Below, in pieces: positions 9,331 through 27,023 of a stretch of 27,506 nt of DNA. Source of the DNA: a virus. Lineage: Duplodnaviria; Caudoviricetes. Position 1 is the stretch's first letter; the number at the start of each line of letters is the position of its first letter. The stretch is from IMG/VR virus record IMGVR_UViG_3300033076_000600, positions 1 through 27,506 of that record; one strand, given 5' to 3'. Below the pieces are notes generated by a model, which worked only from the letters and a program-made list of their open reading frames with translations, was not told the origin of the DNA and searched no databases. A program made the position numbers and the translations under genes.

Positions 9331-10188
9331 ATGACCTTCGACCATAGTCCCGCCCAATCTGGCACAGGAACCGCCAGTAGCTCGCCAACGACAGCTACCG
9401 AGGTTCCCTTGACCTATCCCACCATCACGTCCCCCAAGCGCATTTTTGACGCCCAGCCGGTCAACGAGCTGTGCAACAGCCCGGACGTGCGCCCCTACCT
9501 GGGCGGCTATCTCAACGAGCCCGTCGACCTCACCAACATCGTGGCGAACACGAACAACGTCGTCCTGGAGATGGACGGCTTCGTGGCGATCTACGTGGCG
9601 ATCCAGCCAGGCCTGTTCGAGGTCCACACCCAGGCATCGAAGGAGGCGCGGGGAAGCGGGCTCGTGGTCCCGGCCGCGAAGGCGACCCTGGAGCATATGT
9701 TCCGGAAGACGAACTGCATCGAGGGGATGACCCGCGTGCCGAAGTCGAACAAGGCGGCGCGCGCGCTCGTCGAGGCGACCGGCTTCCGTCACCAGTTCGA
9801 GGTGGCCAACGGCTGGCAGGTCAACGGCGAGGTGATGCCGTGCGACATCTACTCGATCACCCTCACCGACTGGCTCAACATCGGCGAGCACCTGGAAACC
9901 TACGGCAAGGAGTTCCACTACCACGTCGTGGCGGCCTGCAAGGTCGCGGACGTCTCACGGGAGGATCACCCGGACGACGAGGTTCATGAGCGCATGGCCG
10001 GGGCTGCGTACATGATGATCCGCAACGGGCACATCGGCAAAGCCGTGCTCTGCTACAACCGGTGGGCTGCGATGGCTGGCTACATGCCGATCTCGCCCAT
10101 CTCGATCACCCCTACCATCATTCACATCGGAGACATGGCGCTGCTCGTGAAGAACGACGGCAGCCTGGAGGTCGTCAAATGCCAATAG
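9331..10188 (+). CDS. GNAT-fold virion assembly protein (P22 gp14 / DUF2824-like) with a C-terminal extension
   Basis: FEVHTQ..EARG...MF...TRVPKSNKAARALVEATGF is a GNAT signature. It occupies the gp14 position between the needle-like and gp7-like genes. An alternative in-frame TTG start at 9409 has a GAGG SD. Confidence 0.75.
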   Translation: MTFDHSPAQSGTGTASSSPTTATEVPLTYPTITSPKRIFDAQPVNELCNSPDVRPYLGGYLNEPVDLTNIVANTNNVVLEMDGFVAIYVAIQPGLFEVHTQASKEARGSGLVVPAAKATLEHMFRKTNCIEGMTRVPKSNKAARALVEATGFRHQFEVANGWQVNGEVMPCDIYSITLTDWLNIGEHLETYGKEFHYHVVAACKVADVSREDHPDDEVHERMAGAAYMMIRNGHIGKAVLCYNRWAAMAGYMPISPISITPTIIHIGDMALLVKNDGSLEVVKCQ

Positions 10189-15539: not shown

Positions 15540-18500
15540 ATGGCGAATCCTTGGGAAATGAACTGGGGCTGGGACGACGACACGAGCCCGGCGCAGCAGC
15601 CAGTCGCGCAGCCGGTCAAGCCGCGCACGCATGGCCAGACGGCTCCCTGGGAGATGAACTGGGACTGGGGCCGCGCGTCTGCCGCGGCCGGTGCCCAAAA
15701 CCCGGACACCATCAAGCCGAACGTGACCATCGGCAACCTGAACCAGGCCGACTACCTGCGCCAGGACGAGTGGCAGTCGCCGGAGCTCCTGCACGAGGAT
15801 GCCGCGACCCAGGACTTCAAGCGGCCTGAAGGCGAGCTCTTCCACGCGCGATCCTTCGTGCCCGGTGCAATGCCGTACCAGGCTCCGACGGCCACCGAAG
15901 ACCCGACCTGGTGGGATGCGACCGCCGGTGCTGGGGCAAAGGGTTTCGGCGATCTTGGGCTGAGCGCCGCGACAGTTTTTGGTGATGACCCGCGCAACGT
16001 GCGCCAGCTCCCGCTGAACAAGCTCGACAACCCGATGTCGCTCGACAACGATTCCTGGTCGATGCTGACGAAGAAGGCGGCGGACCGCGCCATTCGCATG
16101 TTCCCGATGGCCCTGGGCATGATCGCAGGCACGGAGCTCGGCGCTGGCCCGACGCTGGCTGCCAGCTCGGTGCTGACCGGCGGCGCGGCTGGGTCCGCGC
16201 TGGGAGCCTTCGCGCAATCCCTGGGCCCACGATTCAAGACGGCCCTGCTCAAGTACCCTGACGATCCGGAGCGCGCCTGGCAGGAAGCTGGCAACGCGAC
16301 GCTGATCGACGGCGGCTTCGCGGCCCTGGGCGGACTGGCAATGGGCAACAACCCGTTCGCCACCGAGTTTCGGAATGCGATGTTCCAGATGTTCGTGCAG
16401 CAGCCTGCTGTCGGCGTGGGCAATATGTACTTCAGCGAGCTGTACACGGGGGACCACACGGATCAGCCCTGGTATGACCGATACCTGGAAAACGTGGCCC
16501 CAGGCATCGTCCAGACGGGCGCACACGAGGCTGGCAAGATGGCGGGGCGGATCGCCGCTCGCCCTGGTTCCGAGCTTCCTGGGGCTCCTGGTGGCCCTAC
16601 AGACTTCACGGGCGGCGACGACCACTTCATGAACGATGTCCCGGAGGCCATGCCTTCGGAGCGTGCCGCGGCTGGCACCAGGGGCAAGCCTGCCACCGCG
16701 TTCTCGCACCTGGACCGCTACGACCCAAACTACGAGCCGCGCAATCCGCGCCGGTCAGATGGCGACAACGTCACGCCGCTGCGCCACCAGGTGGATGACG
16801 AGCCCATCGACACCACCCTGCGCGACATCAACGAGCAGCTCCCGCTCAAGTCGCGCGAGGTCTTCAACAACCTGAAGCTCACGCGCGCACCGATGGCGGA
16901 CTGGCACAGCGTGCTGCTGAACAAGGGCGTGAAGCCGGAAGAGCTCAAGGACCTGGGGCTGACCAAGGAATCCGAGCGCGATCCGAAGAAGATGTGGACG
17001 CGCGATGAGATCGACGCGCTGATGAAGCGCAACACGCCGGTCTTCAAGGAGCACCTGTACTCGGCGAAGAAGCACGACGACAAGCGCTACACCCTGACAC
17101 AACCGAAGCGCTTCGACGACTCGTGGTCCTGGGTAGACAACAGGACAAATGAAGCAGTCGGATCGTTCGACACGCCCGAAGAAGCCATGCGCGCCATGCC
17201 GGAGGATGCGGTCGCGGTGTTTGATCACACCGGAGAGGAGCACGAAGGGCCGCTCTCGAACGTCGGCTATTCCAAGTGGGACCAGTACGGCGGCGGCGAG
17301 CTCGTCTCCCCTGGCGTGAAGAACTACGAGGAGCGCGTCGTCCAGCAAAACAAGGAGCGGCCGTACCTGAAGGGGCTCAACGAATACATCCGCGAGCGCT
17401 TCGGCGAAGACAAGTACAACGACATCTGGCAGCGAATGACGTGGGAGGAGCGCGACGCTGTCAACAAGGAGTACGAGCGCGACGTCGTCGGGCCGTGGCA
17501 GCAGGCTGTCCGTGAGCACCAGGCCAGCCGGTGGAATATCGGTGACACGCCTGGCGACCACTTCGGCATTCACAATTCCATCTACCACAACCGCTATGGC
17601 ACGATGGAGTTCGACGACGGCGTTATCGCGCACCACGATGACGAGACGCAGTCCGACACGATCCAGAAGGGCAGGACGAACGGCTTCCGCGACGAGTCAC
17701 CGGATGTGATCCGGAACCGCGCCGACGTCTACCGCACGCAGTACGCGCAGAAGCAGGCCGAGTGGCGTGGCACGCTGGACAACTGGGCAGGGCTTCGCGA
17801 CAAGCTCACCGGCCACAACGGGGCGGCTCCGCTCCGGGTGTACGCCTCCGACCTGAAGACGCTGATGGAGCTGCCGCCGGATACGGCTGAGCGGCTGGGC
17901 TACACGCCATTCGACGTGGAGCGCGCTCGCCGGGACTACGACAAGGTCATCCGCCTGCAGAACGAGGCGGCCCACATGGATGTCCTGGCCGGTAACATTG
18001 CCGACGAAGCGAGCCGCATCCCCATCGTCCCCCACGTTGATTCGTGGGGCAAGCTCTCCATGAAGCGCATGATCCAGGTCGCGCTGTCGAAGGGCTTGCG
18101 CCACATTTCCTGGACGACCGGCGAGCAACAGGCGCAGCGCTACGGCCTGGAGAAGAAGATCAAGTCGATCTCGTTCCGACCGGCCGACCGGTCCAATCCT
18201 GGTGGCGACAAGGTCACCTGGGCCGCGATGAAGCATGACGGCAATTATGCCATTCAGGACAAGACATCGGACTTCAAGGACCTTGCCGATCACATCGGCA
18301 GTGAGCTCGCCAGGAAGATATTCGACCGGGTCAAGGAGTGGGACACCGGGGCCCACCAGCACACCTGGCTTCAGCTCAACACCGACGACCTGAAGCTCGG
18401 CGGCGAGTTCCACAAGAAGCTCTACGACAAGAAGAAGGTCGAGTGGGCCAGGGAACTGGGGCGGCCGTTCGGGTTCAAGCCGGAGCTGAAAAGCACGTCA

Positions 18501-21500
18501 TACGAGGACACGTCGGTCCCTATTGGGTTTCGTCCGTTCAAACTCGGCGATGCCACCTGGAACCGCGTGGCTGACGCCCTCCGCAGTGATCTGAGGCAGA
18601 CCAACGTGTCTCGCCCCTGGGGCACCACCGAGGTCATGCTGCGGACCCTCCAAAAGATGGAGGAGATTGAGCAGCGCGGAGCAAACGGTGGTGACGGATC
18701 GTCATCCGATCTCATGGACTACTTGAACCACGAGTTCGTCACCAACGACCGGGAGAAGCTCTTCAATACCCTGCGAAAGAGCGCCCCGTCGGCAGTTGGG
18801 CGATCCTACAAAATGGCCATAGCTCATGAGCCTGGTAGTGATGCGCGCCGCCAGCTCCTGGCGGCTGTGATGCAGCTCAAGGACAAGCTGGCCGCAGGCC
18901 AGCCTACCGGCCTGCTTCGCTCATGGTTCAACCGCAACGACCTGAACAACCCCGGCCTGATCGACGAGCTGATCCACACAGCTCAGTCGCCGAACCGCAA
19001 CCTCGCAACGTACTTCGAAGGATTGCGGACGTCGCGCCTGGATTCCACTGACGACGCCAACATCCTCATGCGCGCCATCGAAAGGGAGCAGAAGGACATT
19101 TTCGGCTCCAGCACCAAGCCGCTGTTCGAGCTGAAAGACGTGTCGAACCGGGACCGCCAGATGTGGCGCATGGAAATCACCCCGAAGATGGGCAAGCAGT
19201 TCCGCTACCAGATCGCGGCGGACGAGGAGAAGGCGGCTCCTGGAACCTTGGCCGTGGTGCACAACATCAGCGCCCAGGCGCTGCGCCACGCGGCTGATGT
19301 TGGCGGGCTCCCGGCTCCATCCATCGGCATCGTCAAGGCGGCGCACGGGCTGCAGGGCTACGGTGAGATTTCGCTCCTGGGTCACGCCAGCCTGATCGAT
19401 CCGGAGCGTGGCACCAAGGTGTATCGCAACGACGCCTACTCGTCGCGCTACCCGGTTGTCCGCATGCGCGTCGACCCGGAGAAGATCGGGGAGATCGAAC
19501 GGGTCCTTGGACCCGAAGCCAAGCGCTTGCGCCTGCCGCCGAAGCTCACATCGGGCGAGAAGGCGTTCAAAGACGGGCTCTACTCGCTCAACAAGAACAA
19601 GCCGCTCATCGCCATGTTCGCGCGCGAGCACGGCATGTTGCGTCCCGGCGAAGAGCTGGGGTCCGAGCCGCGGTTCAATGGCCGCTTCGATTCGTTGCGC
19701 CAGGAGATGATCAAGCGGAAGGAGTTCGTTCCCTGGCTCAAGGAGAAGTTCCGGGACGCCATCGCTGGCGAGGAGTTTACCGACAAGACCACTGGCGAAA
19801 CCGTCGCCCACACGCTGGCAAACGTGCTGCGCTACATGACGGGCAAGGGGGATGTGCGGGCGTCGACCCCTGGGCACGGTCCTGGCCATGCGCTCTCGTC
19901 CATGACGGAGCCGTTCCTGACCAGGGGGGAGATCAAGTCGGAAGAGGGCCGCCTGGTCCACAACGATGAATACCTTGCCACGCATCGCCCCAGGCTGGAG
20001 GCCCAGTACGAAAGCCTGATGGACGTCCTGCAAAAGTACCGTCCAGGCGACGCGGCATCCGGCAAGCAGAAGAGCAAGATCAGCCCGGCCCGCGACTGGG
20101 CGCACAAGCAGATCATCGAGGCCGCGCGCAGCGGTGACCCTGCGGCCTATGTGGCGAGGCACATCTCCAACGACCAGCGGCTTGGCGAGGTCATGGCCGC
20201 CTTTGTCGACAGCGCGAAGAACACGAAGACGCGGTACTTCGAAGCGAAGATGGACCGCACGGTCAGGCTGCCGGAGTTCAAGGCGGCCGTGATCCCGTCA
20301 AACATCGCGGAGTCGGATCGCCAGCTCCTGGCGGACAACGGCATCCACGAGCAGGTGGTCTACAAGTATTCAGAAGACCCGATGGAGAACGAGTACAACC
20401 GGCAACGGGCCATCGAGAGCCTGCAGCACCTGTTGTTCCAGCGCGAGGCTGGCGGCGAGCTCTCCGGTCGCATGGACGACCTGCGGAAGGTGTCGCTGAC
20501 GAAAGAGCAGGCCGCCAAGCACGCGCCGGTCATGAAGTCGATCATGGAGGAAATCAAGCGCATCGCGCCGGGTGCCAAGGTGGCCTTCGTCGAGCAGCTC
20601 ATGTCGCGCAACGCCGATGGCAGTGTCACGCCGATCCGCGGCACCTCGTTCGGTGACATGGTCGTCGTGGCGCTCCGCAACAAGAACGCCGAGGGCACCG
20701 GCAGGCACGAGGGTGGCCACGTCATCGTTGACGGCTTCAAGGAGATGGGAATCTTCAAGCCGCACGAGTGGCAGGCGCTGAAGGACTTTGCCGAGGAGAA
20801 GCTCTACGGCAAGCATAAGGATTTCCTGCGGCATTACGAAGGCATGGGCGACGACGTCAAGCTCTCCGAGGCCATCGTGCAGGAGCTGGGCGAGGGGCGG
20901 CCGACAAAGTTCAAGGGCTACCCGCCGATCATCCGCAAGATGCTCTACCGCATGGACGGCATCCTGAAGGCGATCCGTGTTGGCGTGCATCGCGTCCTGG
21001 GCAAGAAGGTCCGCGGCGAGGACGTGCTCGACATGCTCGACGCCGGTCACATCGGCGCGCGCGTTCATCGCCTGAAGAAGCTGGGCGAGAACGCGACCAG
21101 GGACTACAGCCTGGCCACGGACAAGGGCGGCAAGGTCCACTACCAGATCAGCGATGAGACGAAGGTCGACAACATCTTCGAAAGCGCTCTCGACATCGCC
21201 CTGGAGAACACGAAACTCACCAGGGGCCACGGGGCCCAGTGGCGGGCGGAGCTCATCAAGCAAGGCGTGAAGCCGGAAGAGCTGCGCGACACCGGCCTCG
21301 ACGATCTGTTCACGTCGCACAAGGACCAGCCGCTCACCAAGGACCACATCATCAACCGGCGCGAAGACAACCGGACGGAGCTGCACGTCATCATCAGGGA
21401 CGATGGCGGGCACCCGCTGGCGCGCGCAGGAACGAACCCTGACGAGCAGGCGCAGCTCGCCCAAAGGACGGCGGCCCCTGACGACCCGCTGGCGGGTGTT

Positions 21501-24500
21501 GACATGTGGGACGACATGGATGAGCTGCGCGAGTACATCGAGGACAACGATCTCCGCGACGAGATCGATGCCAGACTGGAAGACTACGACGACCCTGACA
21601 ACCCGCGTGAGCGCTACGAAGCCAGGGAGTGGGACCAGCCCACGTACCGGGTCGTGGAGCGCAATGGCCGTGGCGAGAGCCTCGACTGGCATGGCACGCA
21701 CAACGACCACTATGACGCCGAGTGGGAGATCGAGAACTCCGGCTACTACAAGACCAAGGCCTTCTTCCACACTGCGCCGCGGCAAGTCGGCGGCCTGCTG
21801 ACGCGCCTGATGGGCAAGGAGCCGGTCTGGGTAGTCGACATCCACCAGCACGCGACCGACCGGAAGAACAGACCCGTCGACATCTGGGGGGACAGGATTG
21901 ATCCTGATCTCGACAACGAGAAGGATCACACGGGCTACGAGCTCTCAGACCCTGAGAACGAGGAGCACGACGGGCAATTCCACAATCACCAGCCTGTCGA
22001 CGAGGTGTCCGCCTCGACGCCGGAGGAGGCGATCAAAAAGGCCAACGAGTTCATCCGCGAGGAGTCGCGCGTCTTTGAGGTCGAAGAGGAAGAGCCAGAT
22101 GGCTACCGCATCTGGGACCACAAGCACGACGATTGGCACGTAGACGGCGAGCACTTCGACACCAAGCGCTCCGCCGAGCGCTCCGCCGAGCGCGAAAATG
22201 AACACTGGTATGAGGAGTGGTCTGAGGAGGCCGATGATCAAGTCCGACAGGACATCGAACAGGATCACGACTGGTGGGTAGAGCGAGCGGTCGAGCACTT
22301 GCAGAACGAGGGCTCGGAGCGGGACTCTGATGAGCTTGCAGACCTTGTTCGCGAGCACTGGTACGGCACTGGCCGCGACCGCAGCCGTCCCCGCAACCGC
22401 GACTATCGCAGCAACGACGTCAAGTACGGCACCTACAACCTGAAGGGCGGCACCTACAAGCGCGAGTACCTGCTGACGATCCCAACGCTTTCTCCGAAGC
22501 TGCAGCTTGCGGCTCCTGGCTCGACGGCGCTGACGGTGATTCCTCCTGGGCCGAACTTGCCAGACGCGCGACCGCGAGACTTGCGCGTCAGGCAATACCG
22601 GAATGTGAGCGTCCCGACGCATTTCACCGAGCAGGCCGGTCGCAACATCATGATGCACTTCCGCGCGCAGGACTTCATGGTCGAAGACGGCGGCAAGGCG
22701 ATTGTCCTGGAGGAAGATCAGTCCGATCCGCACCAGGCGGCACGCCAGGCGGCAAAGGCCATCACGCAAATCCTGGGGCTGAAGGATGCCACTGGTTACG
22801 GCGTGACGGAGCGCGAAGCGGTCAAGTCGAACTCGGCCAACTGGTATAACCAGGCGCAATCCCTTGGCGAAAACAGCAGGGCCATCGGCAGGCTGATGAG
22901 GGAGTACGTCATCAACAACAAGGCGCTGGAGAAGGCCTATGCGGACGACCTGCGCCCCGGCGACAGCGACTACTGGGCCAACTACGGCGAGCACGCCAAC
23001 TGGGATGAGGTTGGTCACGCGTCCGAGTACCTCAGCAACCCGGCAGACGCGCCCCGCTATTTGCTTGGTGCGATTGAGTATTTGAAGGAGAGGCTCAAGA
23101 CCATCCCGGCGCAAGGCCTGGTGCCCAACGCGAAGAATGCCCTGGTCGAAGCGATGGTCATCGCGCGCGCCAAGGCCAGGATTTCGAGGCGGGTGAATAA
23201 ATTGCACCTGGATGCCGCAAGGCTTCGCGACGCCAACGTCCAGGTCGACAGCCTGCCCCACAAGGATTCCTGGCCCATGCTGGGGCTCAAGTACATCCTG
23301 CATGAGGCGATCATGAACGGCTACGACTACGTCGGTATGCCGACGGGCGCGCAGCAGGTGGATCGTTACCCAGGGGCCCTGCGGACCGCGATCAAGAAGC
23401 TCGTCTGGAAGGAGCGCCGCGATGGCAAGTTCGATCTCGACATCGACATGCAGTCAGCGGACCGGCAGCACCGGCAGCGCCACGTCCTGGAGGGTCTGAC
23501 GGAGCACGACATCAAGAACAACCTTGGGGCGGCAGGTGCGGAGCAGATCGTCAAGCAGCGCTTCGGCCGCAACAACGATTTTGTCCCGACCAGCCAGCAC
23601 GTCGCCGAGGGCGAGATCGGCCCCAACAAGCTGCACATCAACAACCAGGGCATGATGAATTTCTACGACAAGACCGTGCAGAAGGATTCGAAAGCCTTCC
23701 TGGCGAAGATGGGTCTGTCGTGGGGGCGCATCAGGGTCTTGCAGAAGGACCAGACACCATTCGCGGTGATGGGAAAGTCCCGCCATAATGACGGCGAGCA
23801 CTGGGAGTGGGTTGAGGACTTCCACACGAAGGAAGAGGCCGAGGCCTATGCGGAGCACAAGCGCATCGAGGCTCGCGATGCAGCGGCACGCGGCGAGGAG
23901 CCGTACTGGAAGGAGGTCAAGGTCGACATCAACCCGGACTCCTTCCACGAAATCCACGGCATCAAGATCACGCCGGAGGCCCGCCAGAACTACCAGACGG
24001 AGATTACCGACAAGACCGGCAAGGTGGTGAAGCCCGCCAACAAGATGCTGCGCTACCAGATCGCCGACGGCGAAACCAACTACGCTGACCGCGTGGCCAG
24101 GGCGACGACCGACACGCCGGAGTTCAAGCGCTTCTTCGAAGGCAGCGTGGTCAAGACACCGAGTGGCCAGCCGCTGAAGCTGTTCCGCGGCCAGCGTCGC
24201 AATCCCAGGGAGGACGGCTTCACGCTGTCCAGCGGGCGGGCGACGCCGTCGTTCACGCCAGACCCAGACGTCGCGTCGGTCTACTCCAGGCAGTTGGACA
24301 CGAGGGAGTATGGCGCTGGCTCGAACGTGGTCCCGACCTACCTGTCGATCAAGAACCCGCTGGACCTGCGCGCGCTTGGCGAGCATCCGTCCCTGGGAGA
24401 GGTGGTCGAGCTTCTGCCCTATGACTGGCGCGAGCCCTCGGCCCTGGACCAGTTCAAGGTGGGCTACGCCGACCTGGCGGAGGCGCTGCGTGACATGGAC

Positions 24501-27023
24501 ACCACCGTGTTCCGCACGAACGCCGAGCACGACATCCGTGCCGGAGATCGCGACGGGCTGCGGGTTCGCAGCTTCGACGAGCTGGCGGACCTGATCGAGC
24601 AGCTTGGTGAGGATGGCGACTACGAGGGCATCGAGAATGCGCTGGCGGACGTGTCCGTCGACGCCTACAGCTTTGCGGACTCGCCAATGTTCGTCGACAT
24701 GCTGAAGCAGGCTGGATACGACGGGGTGATCCACAAGGACGTCTTCGAAAGTGGCGCTGACCACTACGAGCCTGGCCGGGACAAGCTGGAGGAGGGCAGC
24801 ACGGGCGTGCCGGTGCATGATACCTACCGGCCGTTCGACCAGGAGCAGATCAAGTCGACGCACAACACCGGCACCTGGGGGACGCGCGACAAGCGCATCC
24901 TCTACCAGGCGGCTGGCGACACCGAGAGCCCGCAGTTCAAGAAGTGGTTCGGCATCTCGCGGTCCGTCGACGCCAACGGCAAGCCGCTGCCGTTGTTCCG
25001 CGGGGAGCATGGCGAGGTGAACGGTGACGACATCCAGACCAGGCTGCCGTCCATCACGCTGGTCGAGGACCCTGACATCGCAAGCATGTACGCCGAGGAG
25101 CCCAACAAACGGGAGGATGTCGCACGCGCCCCGCGTGTCGGCCAGTATTACGCCAGGATCGAGCGCCCGATCTTCGAAGACAAGACCGATCCGTTTACGG
25201 AGCTGGGGCCGCTCGCCAGGAAACTTGGGCGAGAGCCGCTGTTGAAGGTGATCGAAAACAGGGACGCGCTGGAGAGCGCCATCATGTCCACGGACAATTG
25301 GCATGAGAAGTACAGCGACTACGGATCGGTGCGCGAGGTGCTCGACAAGAACCCGGCGGCCATCGACGACCTCTACATCCAGGCCAATATCCTGCTGGAC
25401 GACCCTGGGTTCGTGAAGCTGGCGAAGTCGAAGGGGTACGACGGAGCCATCCACCTGGCCTGGAGCGCGGCCAAGGATGCCGTCGAGCACCGCGTGTTCG
25501 ACAAGGGCCAGATCAAGGGCGTCAACAACGGCGGCGAGTGGAGCACGACCGACAAGCGGGTCATGTACCAGAAGGGCGACGGCTCCGACTTCATCGCGAA
25601 GGAGGTCTATGGCAAGGGCGAGCTGGCCCCGGCCGACCCGAAGGTGAACACGCCGGAGTTCAGGGCCTGGTGGAAGAAGAGCCACGCGGTGGACGCCATT
25701 GGTCACCCGCGCACGGTCTATCACGGCTCGCTGCGCGACGTGGAGGAGTTCAGGCCTGGCAACAACGGGAACTACCTGGGCAACAGGTTCTACTTTTCCA
25801 GCAATCGCCAGGACGCCTCGCAGAACTATGCGAACCGCATGGGCACCGACTTCGACGCCAGGGCCTGGATGCGCGCGGCCGGTGACGCGCGGGCCATGAC
25901 CAGGGACCAGCTTGAGCAGGCGGCCGAGGAGTGGAAGAACAAGAACTCCGATCACTATGGTGCGGTCTACCCGTTCTACCTCAGCATCCAGAACCCGGTT
26001 TACCTGGGCGGCCCGTCGGAGACGCGCATCCCGAAGTCAACGGTGCATGCGATGATGGGGTTCCTGCCGGATGTCCTGAAGGGCGTCGACAGTGATCTGG
26101 CGAAGAGCTCGACGCTGCGGCCGGTGCTGAACAAGTGGCTCGGTGACCTCATGAACGAAATCCGCCACGGCTCGACGATGGCCGCCAGCGACTTTGTTCG
26201 CAAGCTGCTGACAAACGGCCGGGTCAACCACGCTGTGTTGCAGGCGCTCCCGAAGTTCCACGCAGACAACCCGCTGCCGGAAGTGCTGCGCGGCCTGTTC
26301 GAGAAGATGGGCTTTGACGGTGCCATCGACCCGGCGGTGCGCGGGAAGTTCCCAGGTCTGTTCAACGGCTACCAGGGCGATCCGATCCCAGGCGACGTGA
26401 CCCACTACATCGCGTTCCACCCGAACCAGATCAAGTCGGTCAACAATACCGGCTCGTTCAGCGAGCGCATGAACCACATCCTGTACCAGGTTGGTGACAA
26501 GCTCGACACGAAGTACGAGGACGCGCCGCAGGGCGGCCGGTTCCTGGATGGGCTGCGCGACGGCTTTGCCAACGGCAAGGTCGACAAGGGCGAGCAGGCC
26601 TACATCTCGGACCAGCCGCAGGACCTTGAGCGGGTCTACAAGAAGGACTGGCTGGAGCTGCGCCGCGGCGCTCCGCACCTGAAGCAGTTCGCGATCATGC
26701 TTCACGGCAAGCCAATCGGCCGCATCAACGGCACGGTGAACGGCGAGAGCATGGAGGTGCAGTGGATTGGGTTGCTGGGTGGCGACGACGGGTTGAGCGA
26801 TAGCTCGATCCGGCATCTTGGTGCTATCCTGCGCGAAGCACTGCCACGGGGGGTCAACCGATTGACCGGCCTGCGGAAGCGCGCAGAGCAAAAATCCGAC
26901 ATGCCGCCGATCCGGCCGCAAGAGCCTGCGCCTAAGCCTGCTCCACGCATCATCACCACCAGGGGACGGGAAGACCCGTTGCTCGATTATTATCGGGACC
27001 TTGGCGTCGATCTAGGGGACTAA
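15540..27023 (+). CDS. Giant polyvalent protein (3827 aa): ejection-type N-terminus, 2x ExQSD domain, DarT-like domain, HExxH metallopeptidase, 3x ART-PolyVal-like ADP-ribosyltransferase, GNAT-like C-terminus
   Basis: 11.5-kb uninterrupted ORF with phage codon bias. HEGGH at 20706-20720. Three TPEF..WF..S...G.P...(R/H)G...GYDG...F...QIKS..N.G.(W/F) units at 24060-26489. Located between the ejection genes and the tailspike. Confidence 0.85.
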   Translation: MANPWEMNWGWDDDTSPAQQPVAQPVKPRTHGQTAPWEMNWDWGRASAAAGAQNPDTIKPNVTIGNLNQADYLRQDEWQSPELLHEDAATQDFKRPEGELFHARSFVPGAMPYQAPTATEDPTWWDATAGAGAKGFGDLGLSAATVFGDDPRNVRQLPLNKLDNPMSLDNDSWSMLTKKAADRAIRMFPMALGMIAGTELGAGPTLAASSVLTGGAAGSALGAFAQSLGPRFKTALLKYPDDPERAWQEAGNATLIDGGFAALGGLAMGNNPFATEFRNAMFQMFVQQPAVGVGNMYFSELYTGDHTDQPWYDRYLENVAPGIVQTGAHEAGKMAGRIAARPGSELPGAPGGPTDFTGGDDHFMNDVPEAMPSERAAAGTRGKPATAFSHLDRYDPNYEPRNPRRSDGDNVTPLRHQVDDEPIDTTLRDINEQLPLKSREVFNNLKLTRAPMADWHSVLLNKGVKPEELKDLGLTKESERDPKKMWTRDEIDALMKRNTPVFKEHLYSAKKHDDKRYTLTQPKRFDDSWSWVDNRTNEAVGSFDTPEEAMRAMPEDAVAVFDHTGEEHEGPLSNVGYSKWDQYGGGELVSPGVKNYEERVVQQNKERPYLKGLNEYIRERFGEDKYNDIWQRMTWEERDAVNKEYERDVVGPWQQAVREHQASRWNIGDTPGDHFGIHNSIYHNRYGTMEFDDGVIAHHDDETQSDTIQKGRTNGFRDESPDVIRNRADVYRTQYAQKQAEWRGTLDNWAGLRDKLTGHNGAAPLRVYASDLKTLMELPPDTAERLGYTPFDVERARRDYDKVIRLQNEAAHMDVLAGNIADEASRIPIVPHVDSWGKLSMKRMIQVALSKGLRHISWTTGEQQAQRYGLEKKIKSISFRPADRSNPGGDKVTWAAMKHDGNYAIQDKTSDFKDLADHIGSELARKIFDRVKEWDTGAHQHTWLQLNTDDLKLGGEFHKKLYDKKKVEWARELGRPFGFKPELKSTSYEDTSVPIGFRPFKLGDATWNRVADALRSDLRQTNVSRPWGTTEVMLRTLQKMEEIEQRGANGGDGSSSDLMDYLNHEFVTNDREKLFNTLRKSAPSAVGRSYKMAIAHEPGSDARRQLLAAVMQLKDKLAAGQPTGLLRSWFNRNDLNNPGLIDELIHTAQSPNRNLATYFEGLRTSRLDSTDDANILMRAIEREQKDIFGSSTKPLFELKDVSNRDRQMWRMEITPKMGKQFRYQIAADEEKAAPGTLAVVHNISAQALRHAADVGGLPAPSIGIVKAAHGLQGYGEISLLGHASLIDPERGTKVYRNDAYSSRYPVVRMRVDPEKIGEIERVLGPEAKRLRLPPKLTSGEKAFKDGLYSLNKNKPLIAMFAREHGMLRPGEELGSEPRFNGRFDSLRQEMIKRKEFVPWLKEKFRDAIAGEEFTDKTTGETVAHTLANVLRYMTGKGDVRASTPGHGPGHALSSMTEPFLTRGEIKSEEGRLVHNDEYLATHRPRLEAQYESLMDVLQKYRPGDAASGKQKSKISPARDWAHKQIIEAARSGDPAAYVARHISNDQRLGEVMAAFVDSAKNTKTRYFEAKMDRTVRLPEFKAAVIPSNIAESDRQLLADNGIHEQVVYKYSEDPMENEYNRQRAIESLQHLLFQREAGGELSGRMDDLRKVSLTKEQAAKHAPVMKSIMEEIKRIAPGAKVAFVEQLMSRNADGSVTPIRGTSFGDMVVVALRNKNAEGTGRHEGGHVIVDGFKEMGIFKPHEWQALKDFAEEKLYGKHKDFLRHYEGMGDDVKLSEAIVQELGEGRPTKFKGYPPIIRKMLYRMDGILKAIRVGVHRVLGKKVRGEDVLDMLDAGHIGARVHRLKKLGENATRDYSLATDKGGKVHYQISDETKVDNIFESALDIALENTKLTRGHGAQWRAELIKQGVKPEELRDTGLDDLFTSHKDQPLTKDHIINRREDNRTELHVIIRDDGGHPLARAGTNPDEQAQLAQRTAAPDDPLAGVDMWDDMDELREYIEDNDLRDEIDARLEDYDDPDNPRERYEAREWDQPTYRVVERNGRGESLDWHGTHNDHYDAEWEIENSGYYKTKAFFHTAPRQVGGLLTRLMGKEPVWVVDIHQHATDRKNRPVDIWGDRIDPDLDNEKDHTGYELSDPENEEHDGQFHNHQPVDEVSASTPEEAIKKANEFIREESRVFEVEEEEPDGYRIWDHKHDDWHVDGEHFDTKRSAERSAERENEHWYEEWSEEADDQVRQDIEQDHDWWVERAVEHLQNEGSERDSDELADLVREHWYGTGRDRSRPRNRDYRSNDVKYGTYNLKGGTYKREYLLTIPTLSPKLQLAAPGSTALTVIPPGPNLPDARPRDLRVRQYRNVSVPTHFTEQAGRNIMMHFRAQDFMVEDGGKAIVLEEDQSDPHQAARQAAKAITQILGLKDATGYGVTEREAVKSNSANWYNQAQSLGENSRAIGRLMREYVINNKALEKAYADDLRPGDSDYWANYGEHANWDEVGHASEYLSNPADAPRYLLGAIEYLKERLKTIPAQGLVPNAKNALVEAMVIARAKARISRRVNKLHLDAARLRDANVQVDSLPHKDSWPMLGLKYILHEAIMNGYDYVGMPTGAQQVDRYPGALRTAIKKLVWKERRDGKFDLDIDMQSADRQHRQRHVLEGLTEHDIKNNLGAAGAEQIVKQRFGRNNDFVPTSQHVAEGEIGPNKLHINNQGMMNFYDKTVQKDSKAFLAKMGLSWGRIRVLQKDQTPFAVMGKSRHNDGEHWEWVEDFHTKEEAEAYAEHKRIEARDAAARGEEPYWKEVKVDINPDSFHEIHGIKITPEARQNYQTEITDKTGKVVKPANKMLRYQIADGETNYADRVARATTDTPEFKRFFEGSVVKTPSGQPLKLFRGQRRNPREDGFTLSSGRATPSFTPDPDVASVYSRQLDTREYGAGSNVVPTYLSIKNPLDLRALGEHPSLGEVVELLPYDWREPSALDQFKVGYADLAEALRDMDTTVFRTNAEHDIRAGDRDGLRVRSFDELADLIEQLGEDGDYEGIENALADVSVDAYSFADSPMFVDMLKQAGYDGVIHKDVFESGADHYEPGRDKLEEGSTGVPVHDTYRPFDQEQIKSTHNTGTWGTRDKRILYQAAGDTESPQFKKWFGISRSVDANGKPLPLFRGEHGEVNGDDIQTRLPSITLVEDPDIASMYAEEPNKREDVARAPRVGQYYARIERPIFEDKTDPFTELGPLARKLGREPLLKVIENRDALESAIMSTDNWHEKYSDYGSVREVLDKNPAAIDDLYIQANILLDDPGFVKLAKSKGYDGAIHLAWSAAKDAVEHRVFDKGQIKGVNNGGEWSTTDKRVMYQKGDGSDFIAKEVYGKGELAPADPKVNTPEFRAWWKKSHAVDAIGHPRTVYHGSLRDVEEFRPGNNGNYLGNRFYFSSNRQDASQNYANRMGTDFDARAWMRAAGDARAMTRDQLEQAAEEWKNKNSDHYGAVYPFYLSIQNPVYLGGPSETRIPKSTVHAMMGFLPDVLKGVDSDLAKSSTLRPVLNKWLGDLMNEIRHGSTMAASDFVRKLLTNGRVNHAVLQALPKFHADNPLPEVLRGLFEKMGFDGAIDPAVRGKFPGLFNGYQGDPIPGDVTHYIAFHPNQIKSVNNTGSFSERMNHILYQVGDKLDTKYEDAPQGGRFLDGLRDGFANGKVDKGEQAYISDQPQDLERVYKKDWLELRRGAPHLKQFAIMLHGKPIGRINGTVNGESMEVQWIGLLGGDDGLSDSSIRHLGAILREALPRGVNRLTGLRKRAEQKSDMPPIRPQEPAPKPAPRIITTRGREDPLLDYYRDLGVDLGD
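15549..15669 (+). repeat. Duplicated N-terminal peptide PWEMNWxW
   Basis: CCTTGGGAAATGAACTGGGGCTGGG at 15549-15573 and CCCTGGGAGATGAACTGGGACTGGG at 15645-15669. Confidence 0.9.
22165..22193 (+). repeat. 12-bp in-frame tandem duplication (RSAE RSAE R)
   Basis: AGCGCTCCGCCG x2 plus AGCGC. Confidence 0.9.

Follow-up and report, generated by a model that had tools for sequence, protein, structure and literature searches.

A conserved hydrophobic-x-aromatic-glutamine peptide at the module junctions of a giant phage polyvalent protein

The window analyzed here, a stretch of 27,506 nucleotides (27.5 kb), is the entire IMG/VR virus record IMGVR_UViG_3300033076_000600 (Duplodnaviria; Caudoviricetes), with a completeness estimate of 42%. 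It encodes a giant protein of the phage 'polyvalent' type in which a short peptide, Phi-x-[Y/F]-Q (Phi, a hydrophobic residue), recurs where one module ends and the next begins. An initial annotation had proposed that this peptide is a functional signal at module boundaries rather than a product of chance, and that core idea stands: the peptide is conserved in homologues at 25-61% identity, and its last residue co-varies across unrelated modules. As far as we searched, the junction motif, its lineage-specific forms (here called dialects) and their co-variation are described here for the first time.

The giant protein and its modules

The giant open reading frame (ORF) has DNA-ejection-type genes on one side and a tail-fibre-like gene on the other. 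On the upstream side are three large unnamed genes, an SU10-adaptor-like gene and a phrog_598 'DNA ejection' gene; the tail-fibre-like gene follows downstream. This layout matches that of a 65-kb relative (G002; 100% complete, with terminal repeats), whose genes include those for the major head protein, head closure, terminase, DnaB and endolysin. Judged solely by the position of its gene, the giant is most likely an internal virion protein that is ejected into the host. No close relative of the giant or of its 850-amino-acid (aa) neighbour was found in the cultured-phage collection, and the whole giant protein gave no match against PDB sequences.

Pfam assigned three stretches of the giant to ART-PolyVal (95.2 bits; cut-off 31.2) and one domain to PBECR5 (73.5 bits; cut-off 25). 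The presence of both in one ORF makes the giant a 'polyvalent protein' as Iyer et al. 2017 (PMC5512222) use the term: at least two biochemically disparate domains (ART-PolyVal three times, PBECR5, and a module with an HExxH motif) are joined in one polypeptide, and the gene belongs to a phage or conjugative element, here an IMG/VR virus, and stands beside virion or late genes, namely its ejection-type and tail-fibre-like neighbours. The modules follow the order N, B, PBECR5, HExxH, B, ART (three times) and C:

15540..27023, + strand: giant ORF, 3,827 aa, phage 'polyvalent' protein (from the ORF list, Pfam domains and gene neighbours)
15540..16778, + strand: N-terminal region, aa 1-413, no family match; conserved in homologues, ends at junction motif 1
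16791..19199, + strand: module B1, aa 418-1220, unnamed module of ~800 aa, paralogue of B2 (from internal paralogy; no usable match in Pfam or the ESM Atlas)
19197..19631, + strand: PBECR5 predicted RNase domain (Pfam envelope aa 1220-1364); the module extends to aa 1630
20457..21116, + strand: predicted zincin-like metallopeptidase module, aa 1640-1859 (from a hidden Markov model, HMM); HEGGH at 20706-20720, candidate third ligand E1777 at 20868-20870
21147..24047, + strand: module B2, aa 1870-2836, second copy of the unnamed module (from internal paralogy); degenerate tail site QNYQ inside it at 23985-23996
24114..24857, + strand: ART-PolyVal core 1, aa 2859-3106 (Pfam)
24927..25520, + strand: ART-PolyVal core 2, aa 3130-3327 (Pfam)
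25650..26438, + strand: ART-PolyVal core 3, aa 3371-3633 (Pfam)
26490..27020, + strand: C-terminal module, aa 3651-3827, matches no family; conserved in homologues, without a motif at its own end

The claim that each peptide falls between recognisable domains holds in part: Pfam names the ART-PolyVal and PBECR5 units, and the other borders were drawn from paralogy, HMMs and the module content of homologues. Similarity between B1 and B2 begins ~25 aa past motifs 1 and 4 and stops at motifs 2 and 5. When homologues are cut at the motif, they contain 2-3 B and 2-4 ART modules, and one of them (P0006) has neither the first B nor PBECR5. Standalone ART proteins terminate a few residues past the tail that follows the ART core. 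In all, five unrelated module types (N, B, the PBECR5 module, the HExxH module and ART) end in the motif.

The giant contains no cysteine (0 in 3,827 aa). Five of its six full-length homologues are also cysteine-free and the sixth has a single Cys, while 26 Cys were counted in the 4,856 aa of 18 other ORFs in the window. Among other polyvalent proteins of more than 1,500 aa, 62 of 163 are cysteine-free and the median Cys fraction is 0.06%. The absence of cysteine fits a chain that is translocated unfolded.

The junction motif and its dialects

The eight peptides of the initial annotation all lie in frame in the giant ORF, and the codon of the third residue of each was correctly located. They are listed here with their setting, the base of that codon, and the conservation of the aromatic-Q pair in aligned homologues:

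16779..16790, + strand: junction motif 1, LRHQ, aa 414-417, N region/B1 (LRHQVDD, aa 414; His codon 16785); kept in 5/5, with His where homologues have Tyr or Phe
19200..19211, + strand: junction motif 2, FRYQ, aa 1221-1224, B1/PBECR5 module (FRYQIAA, aa 1221; 19206); kept in 6/6
20355..20381, + strand: degenerate tandem site VVYKYSEDP, aa 1606-1614; aligns with IIYQHSDDP of the two closest homologues
20430..20441, + strand: junction motif 3, LLFQ, aa 1631-1634, PBECR5 module/HExxH module (LLFQREA, aa 1631; 20436); the weakest site, kept in 4/6
21135..21146, + strand: junction motif 4, VHYQ, aa 1866-1869, HExxH module/B2 (VHYQISD, aa 1866; 21141); kept in 6/6
24048..24059, + strand: junction motif 5, LRYQ, aa 2837-2840, B2/ART1 (LRYQIAD, aa 2837; 24054); kept in 6/6, and also in P0006 and P0020
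24846..24908, + strand: ART1 tail QIKSTHNTGTWGTRDKRILYQ, ending in junction motif 6, ILYQ, at 24897-24908 (ILYQAAG, aa 3120; 24903); kept in 6/6
25509..25571, + strand: ART2 tail, ending in junction motif 7, VMYQ, at 25560-25571 (VMYQKGD, aa 3341; 25566); kept in 6/6
26427..26489, + strand: ART3 tail, ending in junction motif 8, ILYQ, at 26478-26489 (ILYQVGD, aa 3647; 26484); kept in 6/6

Measured against 20,000 shuffles of the giant protein, the bare dipeptide [YFH]Q named in the initial annotation is not enriched (17 seen, 13.7 expected; reached in 4167/20000 shuffles), whereas the extended motif is: Phi-x-YQ occurs 7 times against 1.06 expected (reached in 1/20000), and Phi-x-YQ-x-[AGS]-[DAG] 6 times against 0.06 (reached in 0/20000). 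The extended patterns were defined after seeing the data, and we therefore used conservation in homologues as an independent test. A length-matched search gave 16 other giant proteins, a representative search added clade members, and conservation was counted by eye in the aligned cells of six full-length homologues that share 25-61% identity with the giant. At the eight junction sites aromatic-Gln was kept in 45 of 47 cells; the giant has nine further [YFH]Q dipeptides, and there it was kept in 14 of 45. Of these 14, 10 came from two conserved domain-internal motifs, DPHQ (aa 2396) and AMFQ (aa 280). The AMFQ site (16377-16388; aa 280-283) is motif-like and lies in the N region; x-x-F-Q is present there in 6/6 homologues, the setting is hydrophobic, no acidic residues follow, and the site is probably domain-internal. 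Flanks and linkers of the junction sites differ between two sub-clades of homologues while the motif stays. The approximate consensus of the clade is [KR]-x-Phi-[RKH]-Y-Q-[VI] followed by acidic residues, the acidic part being inflated by the choice of sites with at least two D/E downstream. In the giant itself, V/I and acidic residues usually come next after the Gln. Elsewhere in the window, 19 ORFs (4,963 aa) hold 4 loose matches, about the chance level.

Some borders carry more than one copy of the motif. The two closest homologues read LRLQ at the position of LLFQ (aa 1631), and 30 aa upstream they have IIYQ at the place of VVYK in the giant. A degenerate QNYQ at aa 2816, 21 aa before LRYQ, is a tandem partner that the initial annotation had overlooked. 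Such pairs, 17-30 aa apart, are found at three borders, namely VVYK...LLFQ (20355-20441), QNYQ...LRYQ (23985-24059) and LKYQ...PSYQ (aa 3486-3509 of homologue P0005), and one copy is frequently degenerate. The pairs may be scars of lost modules.

Part of the motif has a counterpart across the ART-PolyVal family. A profile of the three ART cores without their tails matched 6,825 proteins at E <= 0.001, of which the best 150 were used, together with 80 added IMG/VR loci. The C-terminal tail of the family reads QIKSAxGNxGxFDxxNPDI-x-[FY]-[SQ] (consensus VAFDPEQIKSAIGNNGTFDPANPDIRFSR), and all three ART modules of the window show the pattern QIKS-x3-N-x-G-x-[FWY]-x5-7-Ile-x-x-x directly past the core. 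An HMM built from 518 tails of other proteins recovered 652 tails in 242 proteins. The tail Ile is kept in 516 of 586 internal tails and in 25 of 28 terminal ones (<=40 aa from the C-terminus). Among the internal tails an aromatic residue stands two places past the Ile in 308 and S or Q is next in 350; the two occur together in 181/586 internal tails and in 3/28 terminal tails (Fisher p = 0.02). The Ile, kept alike in both settings, is therefore part of the domain, and the last two residues are more specific to junctions. The tail is wholly absent from the 195-aa ART of Erwinia phage PhiEaH1. The clade motif is an unusually strict, clade-specific form of a junction peptide of which the ART tail is the family-wide version.

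We modelled ART2 and its tail (aa 3112-3358) with AlphaFold2 from a 91-sequence alignment, at a mean pLDDT (predicted local distance difference test) of 79.9. The tail past QIKG (model residues 211-230) has pLDDT values of 85 and 83, up to V3341; the block 231-240, which starts with M-Y-Q, falls to 54, with values below 50 from model residue 238, which agrees with the division between the Ile and the last two residues. For this one junction, V-M-Y-Q, the model thus predicts an exposed stretch between folded units.

The residue at the S/Q place differs by lineage: across the 586 internal tails it is S in 264, Q in 86, A in 77 and R in 57. Module B has a tail of its own, ITPxMRxxxxxGxP[LM][FY]-x, unrelated to the ART tail, and 22 proteins outside the window clade have both. 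In 20 of these 22 the B-tail residue past the aromatic is the same as the majority residue of the ART tails (permutation mean 7.0; 0/20,000 permutations reach 20). The matching states are S/S, A/A, R/R, Q/Q and H/H; where the ART-tail majority is not S, 10/11 match, and the window clade is Q/Q throughout. Tails of the HExxH-module family are of the R-F-S-L type in S-dialect proteins and carry Q in a Q-dialect protein (P0047). Two other causes of the match were set aside. It is not accounted for by a shared 'head' of the next module, since most B tails do not stand before an ART domain and the residues past them are mostly unrelated to ART heads. Gene conversion was discounted on the grounds that the ART and B tails of the window share only TACCAG in their DNA, with unrelated flanks. 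The co-variation argues strongly, though not with phylogenetic security, for one common reader of all junctions in a protein rather than inheritance of the residue with each module.

Possible readers of the junction peptide

We tentatively favour the reading in which Phi-x-[Y/F]-Q is a conserved end-of-module signal and the cleavage site of the HExxH...E metallopeptidase embedded in the same chain. A single reader would recognize every junction of one protein, the embedded metallopeptidase would be that reader, and the chain would be cut at its junctions, either while the host receives it or afterwards, to free the RNase, the ADP-ribosyltransferases and the other modules as separate effectors. 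One candidate scissile bond, between Q and V/I, would supply a hydrophobic P1' residue, and thermolysin-type zincins favour a hydrophobic residue at that position.

The HExxH module is the only peptidase-like element; no chymotrypsin-like protease was found, and the lack of cysteine in the giant excludes a cysteine protease in cis. H1723, E1724, H1727 and E1777 (alignment positions H88, E89, H92 and E142) are invariant in 12 sequences down to 18% identity, so that the HExxH and a candidate downstream third ligand, as expected of a zincin, are both present and conserved among relatives. The module occurs in all 8 full-length clade members, and HExxH is strongly over-represented among large polyvalent proteins (99 of 152; 11.3 expected). 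An AlphaFold2 model of the module is poor (mean pLDDT 59.7); HExxH and E1777 lie in its predicted helices. Zincin-like metallopeptidases were predicted to process polyvalent proteins by Iyer, Burroughs, Anand, de Souza and Aravind in 2017 (PMC5512222).

A series of observations weighs against this reading. The HExxH module matched 0 Pfam families and falls into no curated peptidase family; among its 12 members there was one weak match to Tox-MPTase2 (E 0.035) and one to M13 (E 0.04), its profile had no PDB match below E 0.1, and a Foldseek search with the poor model returned no match at E <= 0.001. Among 103 large proteins with at least two internal ART tails, 40 have no HExxH, which means that a zincin in cis cannot be the universal reader. 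Phage N4 packages its virion RNA polymerase, which also carries a peptidase module of this type, in uncut form (Iyer et al. 2017, PMC5512222). Domain structure accounts for part of the motif, since C-terminal and standalone ARTs retain the greater part of the tail. Outside ART tails, the loose Phi-x-[FY][SQ] occurs 644 times in ~230 other polyvalent proteins compared with 879 in shuffles, and [FY][SQ] in the -25 to -8 stretch ahead of those ART domains that come after a non-ART module is only weakly enriched (56/311, against 31-44/311 in control windows); the loose motif was accordingly rejected as a mark of all polyvalent junctions. The permutation test of the dialects ignores relatedness. 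In a tree of B-module bodies 1 of 23 inner branches is supported, the minimum numbers of changes for the two labels are 9 and 11, and the supported branches give 1 independent pair where the unsupported best tree gives 6, which leaves a phylogenetically corrected co-variation test without power.

A broader version of the cleavage reading is possible, although we give it less credence: a lineage-specific 'junction code', in which all modules end alike, the last residue shifts in concert, and the protein's own peptidase co-evolves with its sites. The giants would then be true bacterial-virus polyproteins, delivered as one chain that releases a cocktail of effectors in the host. Were the co-variation upheld by a phylogenetic test, it would clearly exemplify a protease or other reader that co-evolves with its sites across unrelated domains of its own polypeptide.

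The common reader implied by dialect co-variation could also be a non-proteolytic one, and the initial annotation had named a docking peptide among its options. The motif would then form an amphipathic strand, hydrophobic at positions 0, 2 and 4, that binds one partner, such as a chaperone, the ejection channel or, during packaging, the portal or capsid core, its many copies adding avidity or fixing the order of modules. The alternating L/I-x-Y-x-V/I of the clade junctions, the place of the gene among ejection-type genes and a cysteine-free chain suited to unfolded translocation all agree with such a role. It is nonetheless unlikely in our estimate: aromatic plus S/Q becomes rarer in C-terminal tails (3/28 vs 181/586), where docking would be useful and cutting would not, the other virion proteins of the window have no enrichment of the motif (4 loose matches in 4,963 aa), and no partner was identified.

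A passive end-cap would need neither reader nor cut; the hydrophobic-aromatic end of each module would pack on its own domain ahead of a flexible linker, and the resemblance between junctions would be convergent or trivial. In its favour, the model places the ART tail with confidence as far as the conserved Ile/Val, the Ile is equally conserved in terminal tails, standalone ARTs keep the tail, and the loose pattern outside ART tails lacks family-wide enrichment. This account leaves unexplained both the Y-Q common to five unrelated module types in the clade and the concerted S/A/R/Q/H switch in ART and B tails, and Y-Q stands where model confidence drops rather than in the packed part. We regard it as distinctly unlikely.

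Cleavage by some other protease, from the host or from an unrecognised phage gene, would account for the 40 of 103 multi-tail proteins without HExxH and would be untouched by the failure of the HExxH module to find a peptidase family. Phi-x-F/Y-Q also resembles the sites that 3C-type proteases cut after Gln, and three ORFs upstream of the major head gene of G002 are without annotation, one of which could encode such an enzyme. The head protease offered in the initial annotation has lost ground: no S78, S49 or ClpP family and no PHROG protease was found in two relatives (93% and 100% complete), and none of the 73 ORFs of G002 matched a protease PHROG, families of protease-capsid fusions being matched by their capsid half only. 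A search for the S77 family found 0 in the same two near-complete relatives; its control also matched nowhere, which makes that result uninformative. The cysteine-free giant holds no cysteine protease in cis, and a lineage dialect is harder to square with a conserved host protease. We consider another protease a very unlikely reader.

The initial annotation had further offered DNA micro-homology, of which the motif would be the translated trace, as a means of in-frame gain, loss and swap of modules. The shared 14-mer CGCTACCAGATCGC does occur, exactly twice, at 19203 and 24051. Codon bias explains it: with the codon usage of this gene, the peptide RYQI(A) would be encoded by identical codons with P = 0.15. 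TACCAG (6 nt) is present in 6/8 junctions, and other junction pairs share <=10 nt, like random in-frame pairs. The relation of breakpoints to the motif proved mixed: one homologue (P0003) has lost ART2 with a breakpoint inside I-L-Y-Q, and in another (P0005) one end of a deletion is ~20 aa off the motif and leaves two motifs in tandem, 21 aa apart. Although copy number varies in motif-delimited units (B two to three times, ART two to four), recombination between tandem paralogous ART modules can take place at any point within them, a change in the copy number of such modules requires no special motif, and conservation at 25-35% identity with a single-residue dialect is unlike recombination tracts; we consider this origin most improbable.

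Known systems and further observations

The giant resembles the polyvalent proteins of Iyer et al. 2017 (PMC5512222) in being a giant multi-effector chain with ART-PolyVal, PBECR5 and HExxH modules encoded among virion genes. The junction motif, dialects and co-variation set the present description apart; no junction or cleavage motif was found in the main text of that study, and its supplementary alignments may show the ART tail. A full-text literature search for the junction motif strings returned nothing relevant. Polyvalent proteins rank with the largest proteins of phages and plasmids, and their processing has been predicted since 2017; the conserved junction peptide supplies exact candidate sites for it. 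The motif also gives a practical rule for splitting giants into modules for annotation and expression, including modules without a family name.

Viral 3C, 3C-like and NIa proteases cut polyproteins after Gln. The junctions of the giant are like those sites in being a short repeated peptide between units, with a hydrophobic residue two to three places before Gln (LLFQ and ILYQ are similar). They differ in that relatives have S, A, R or H at the Gln position, the giant is cysteine-free, and cleavage here is only predicted. T4 gp21 and the prohead proteases of phiKZ and SPN3US cut head-packed and ejected proteins at a short consensus site (for the giant, packing and ejection are predicted from gene position). 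The last residue of those sites is Glu, and a prohead protease is dedicated to them; no such protease family was found in two near-complete relatives here. Polymorphic toxins have demarcation motifs, VENN or (Q/E)LYN in CdiA and DPxGL in Rhs. As in those proteins, a short peptide marks the border of exchangeable effector units and variation in content falls at the motif. Unlike theirs, the peptide is different in sequence and is repeated eight times at internal borders rather than standing once before a variable C-terminal toxin. The giant also departs from the polymorphic-toxin layout in its conserved C-terminal module and tail-fibre-like next gene, and no immunity gene is evident.

Several observations concern single modules. 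ART1 and ART2 (24114-25520) read LFRG where ART3 (25650-26438) and the family consensus read VYHG, which puts Arg at the first catalytic His of the H-Y-D triad described for ART-PolyVal (Iyer et al. 2017, PMC5512222); from this substitution, ART1 and ART2 may be inactive or differently configured. The best Foldseek match of the ART2 model (24873-25613) was a weak one to a pre-ejectosome chain of cyanophage A4 (9k3a_B; E 0.016, probability 0.87, template modelling score 0.36), with tankyrases and ART toxins at E > 0.2; the available passages of the cyanophage A4 pre-ejectosome paper make no mention of an ART domain. A QSDPHQ-type motif is conserved in the B modules (aa 2394-2399), and a 2,387-aa protein of Dolichospermum phage Dfl-JY45 has it as QSDWHQ. 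Module B, which has no family name, is probably an enzyme.

At the N-terminus of the giant, the peptide PWEMNW[GD]W occurs twice, at 15549-15572 (aa 4-11) and 15645-15668 (aa 36-43). Some homologues have a motif-like site ~10 residues from the start, at residue 7, which reads FNWQ/WDDLD in P0004, P0005 and P0038 and MNWQ/WNDL in P0099 (the slash follows the Gln). Elsewhere in the window, amid the virion and ejection genes, an ORF at 9331-10188 encodes a GNAT-like acetyltransferase (Pfam 20.6 bits, below the cut-off of 25.4; phrog_1249, E 4e-5).

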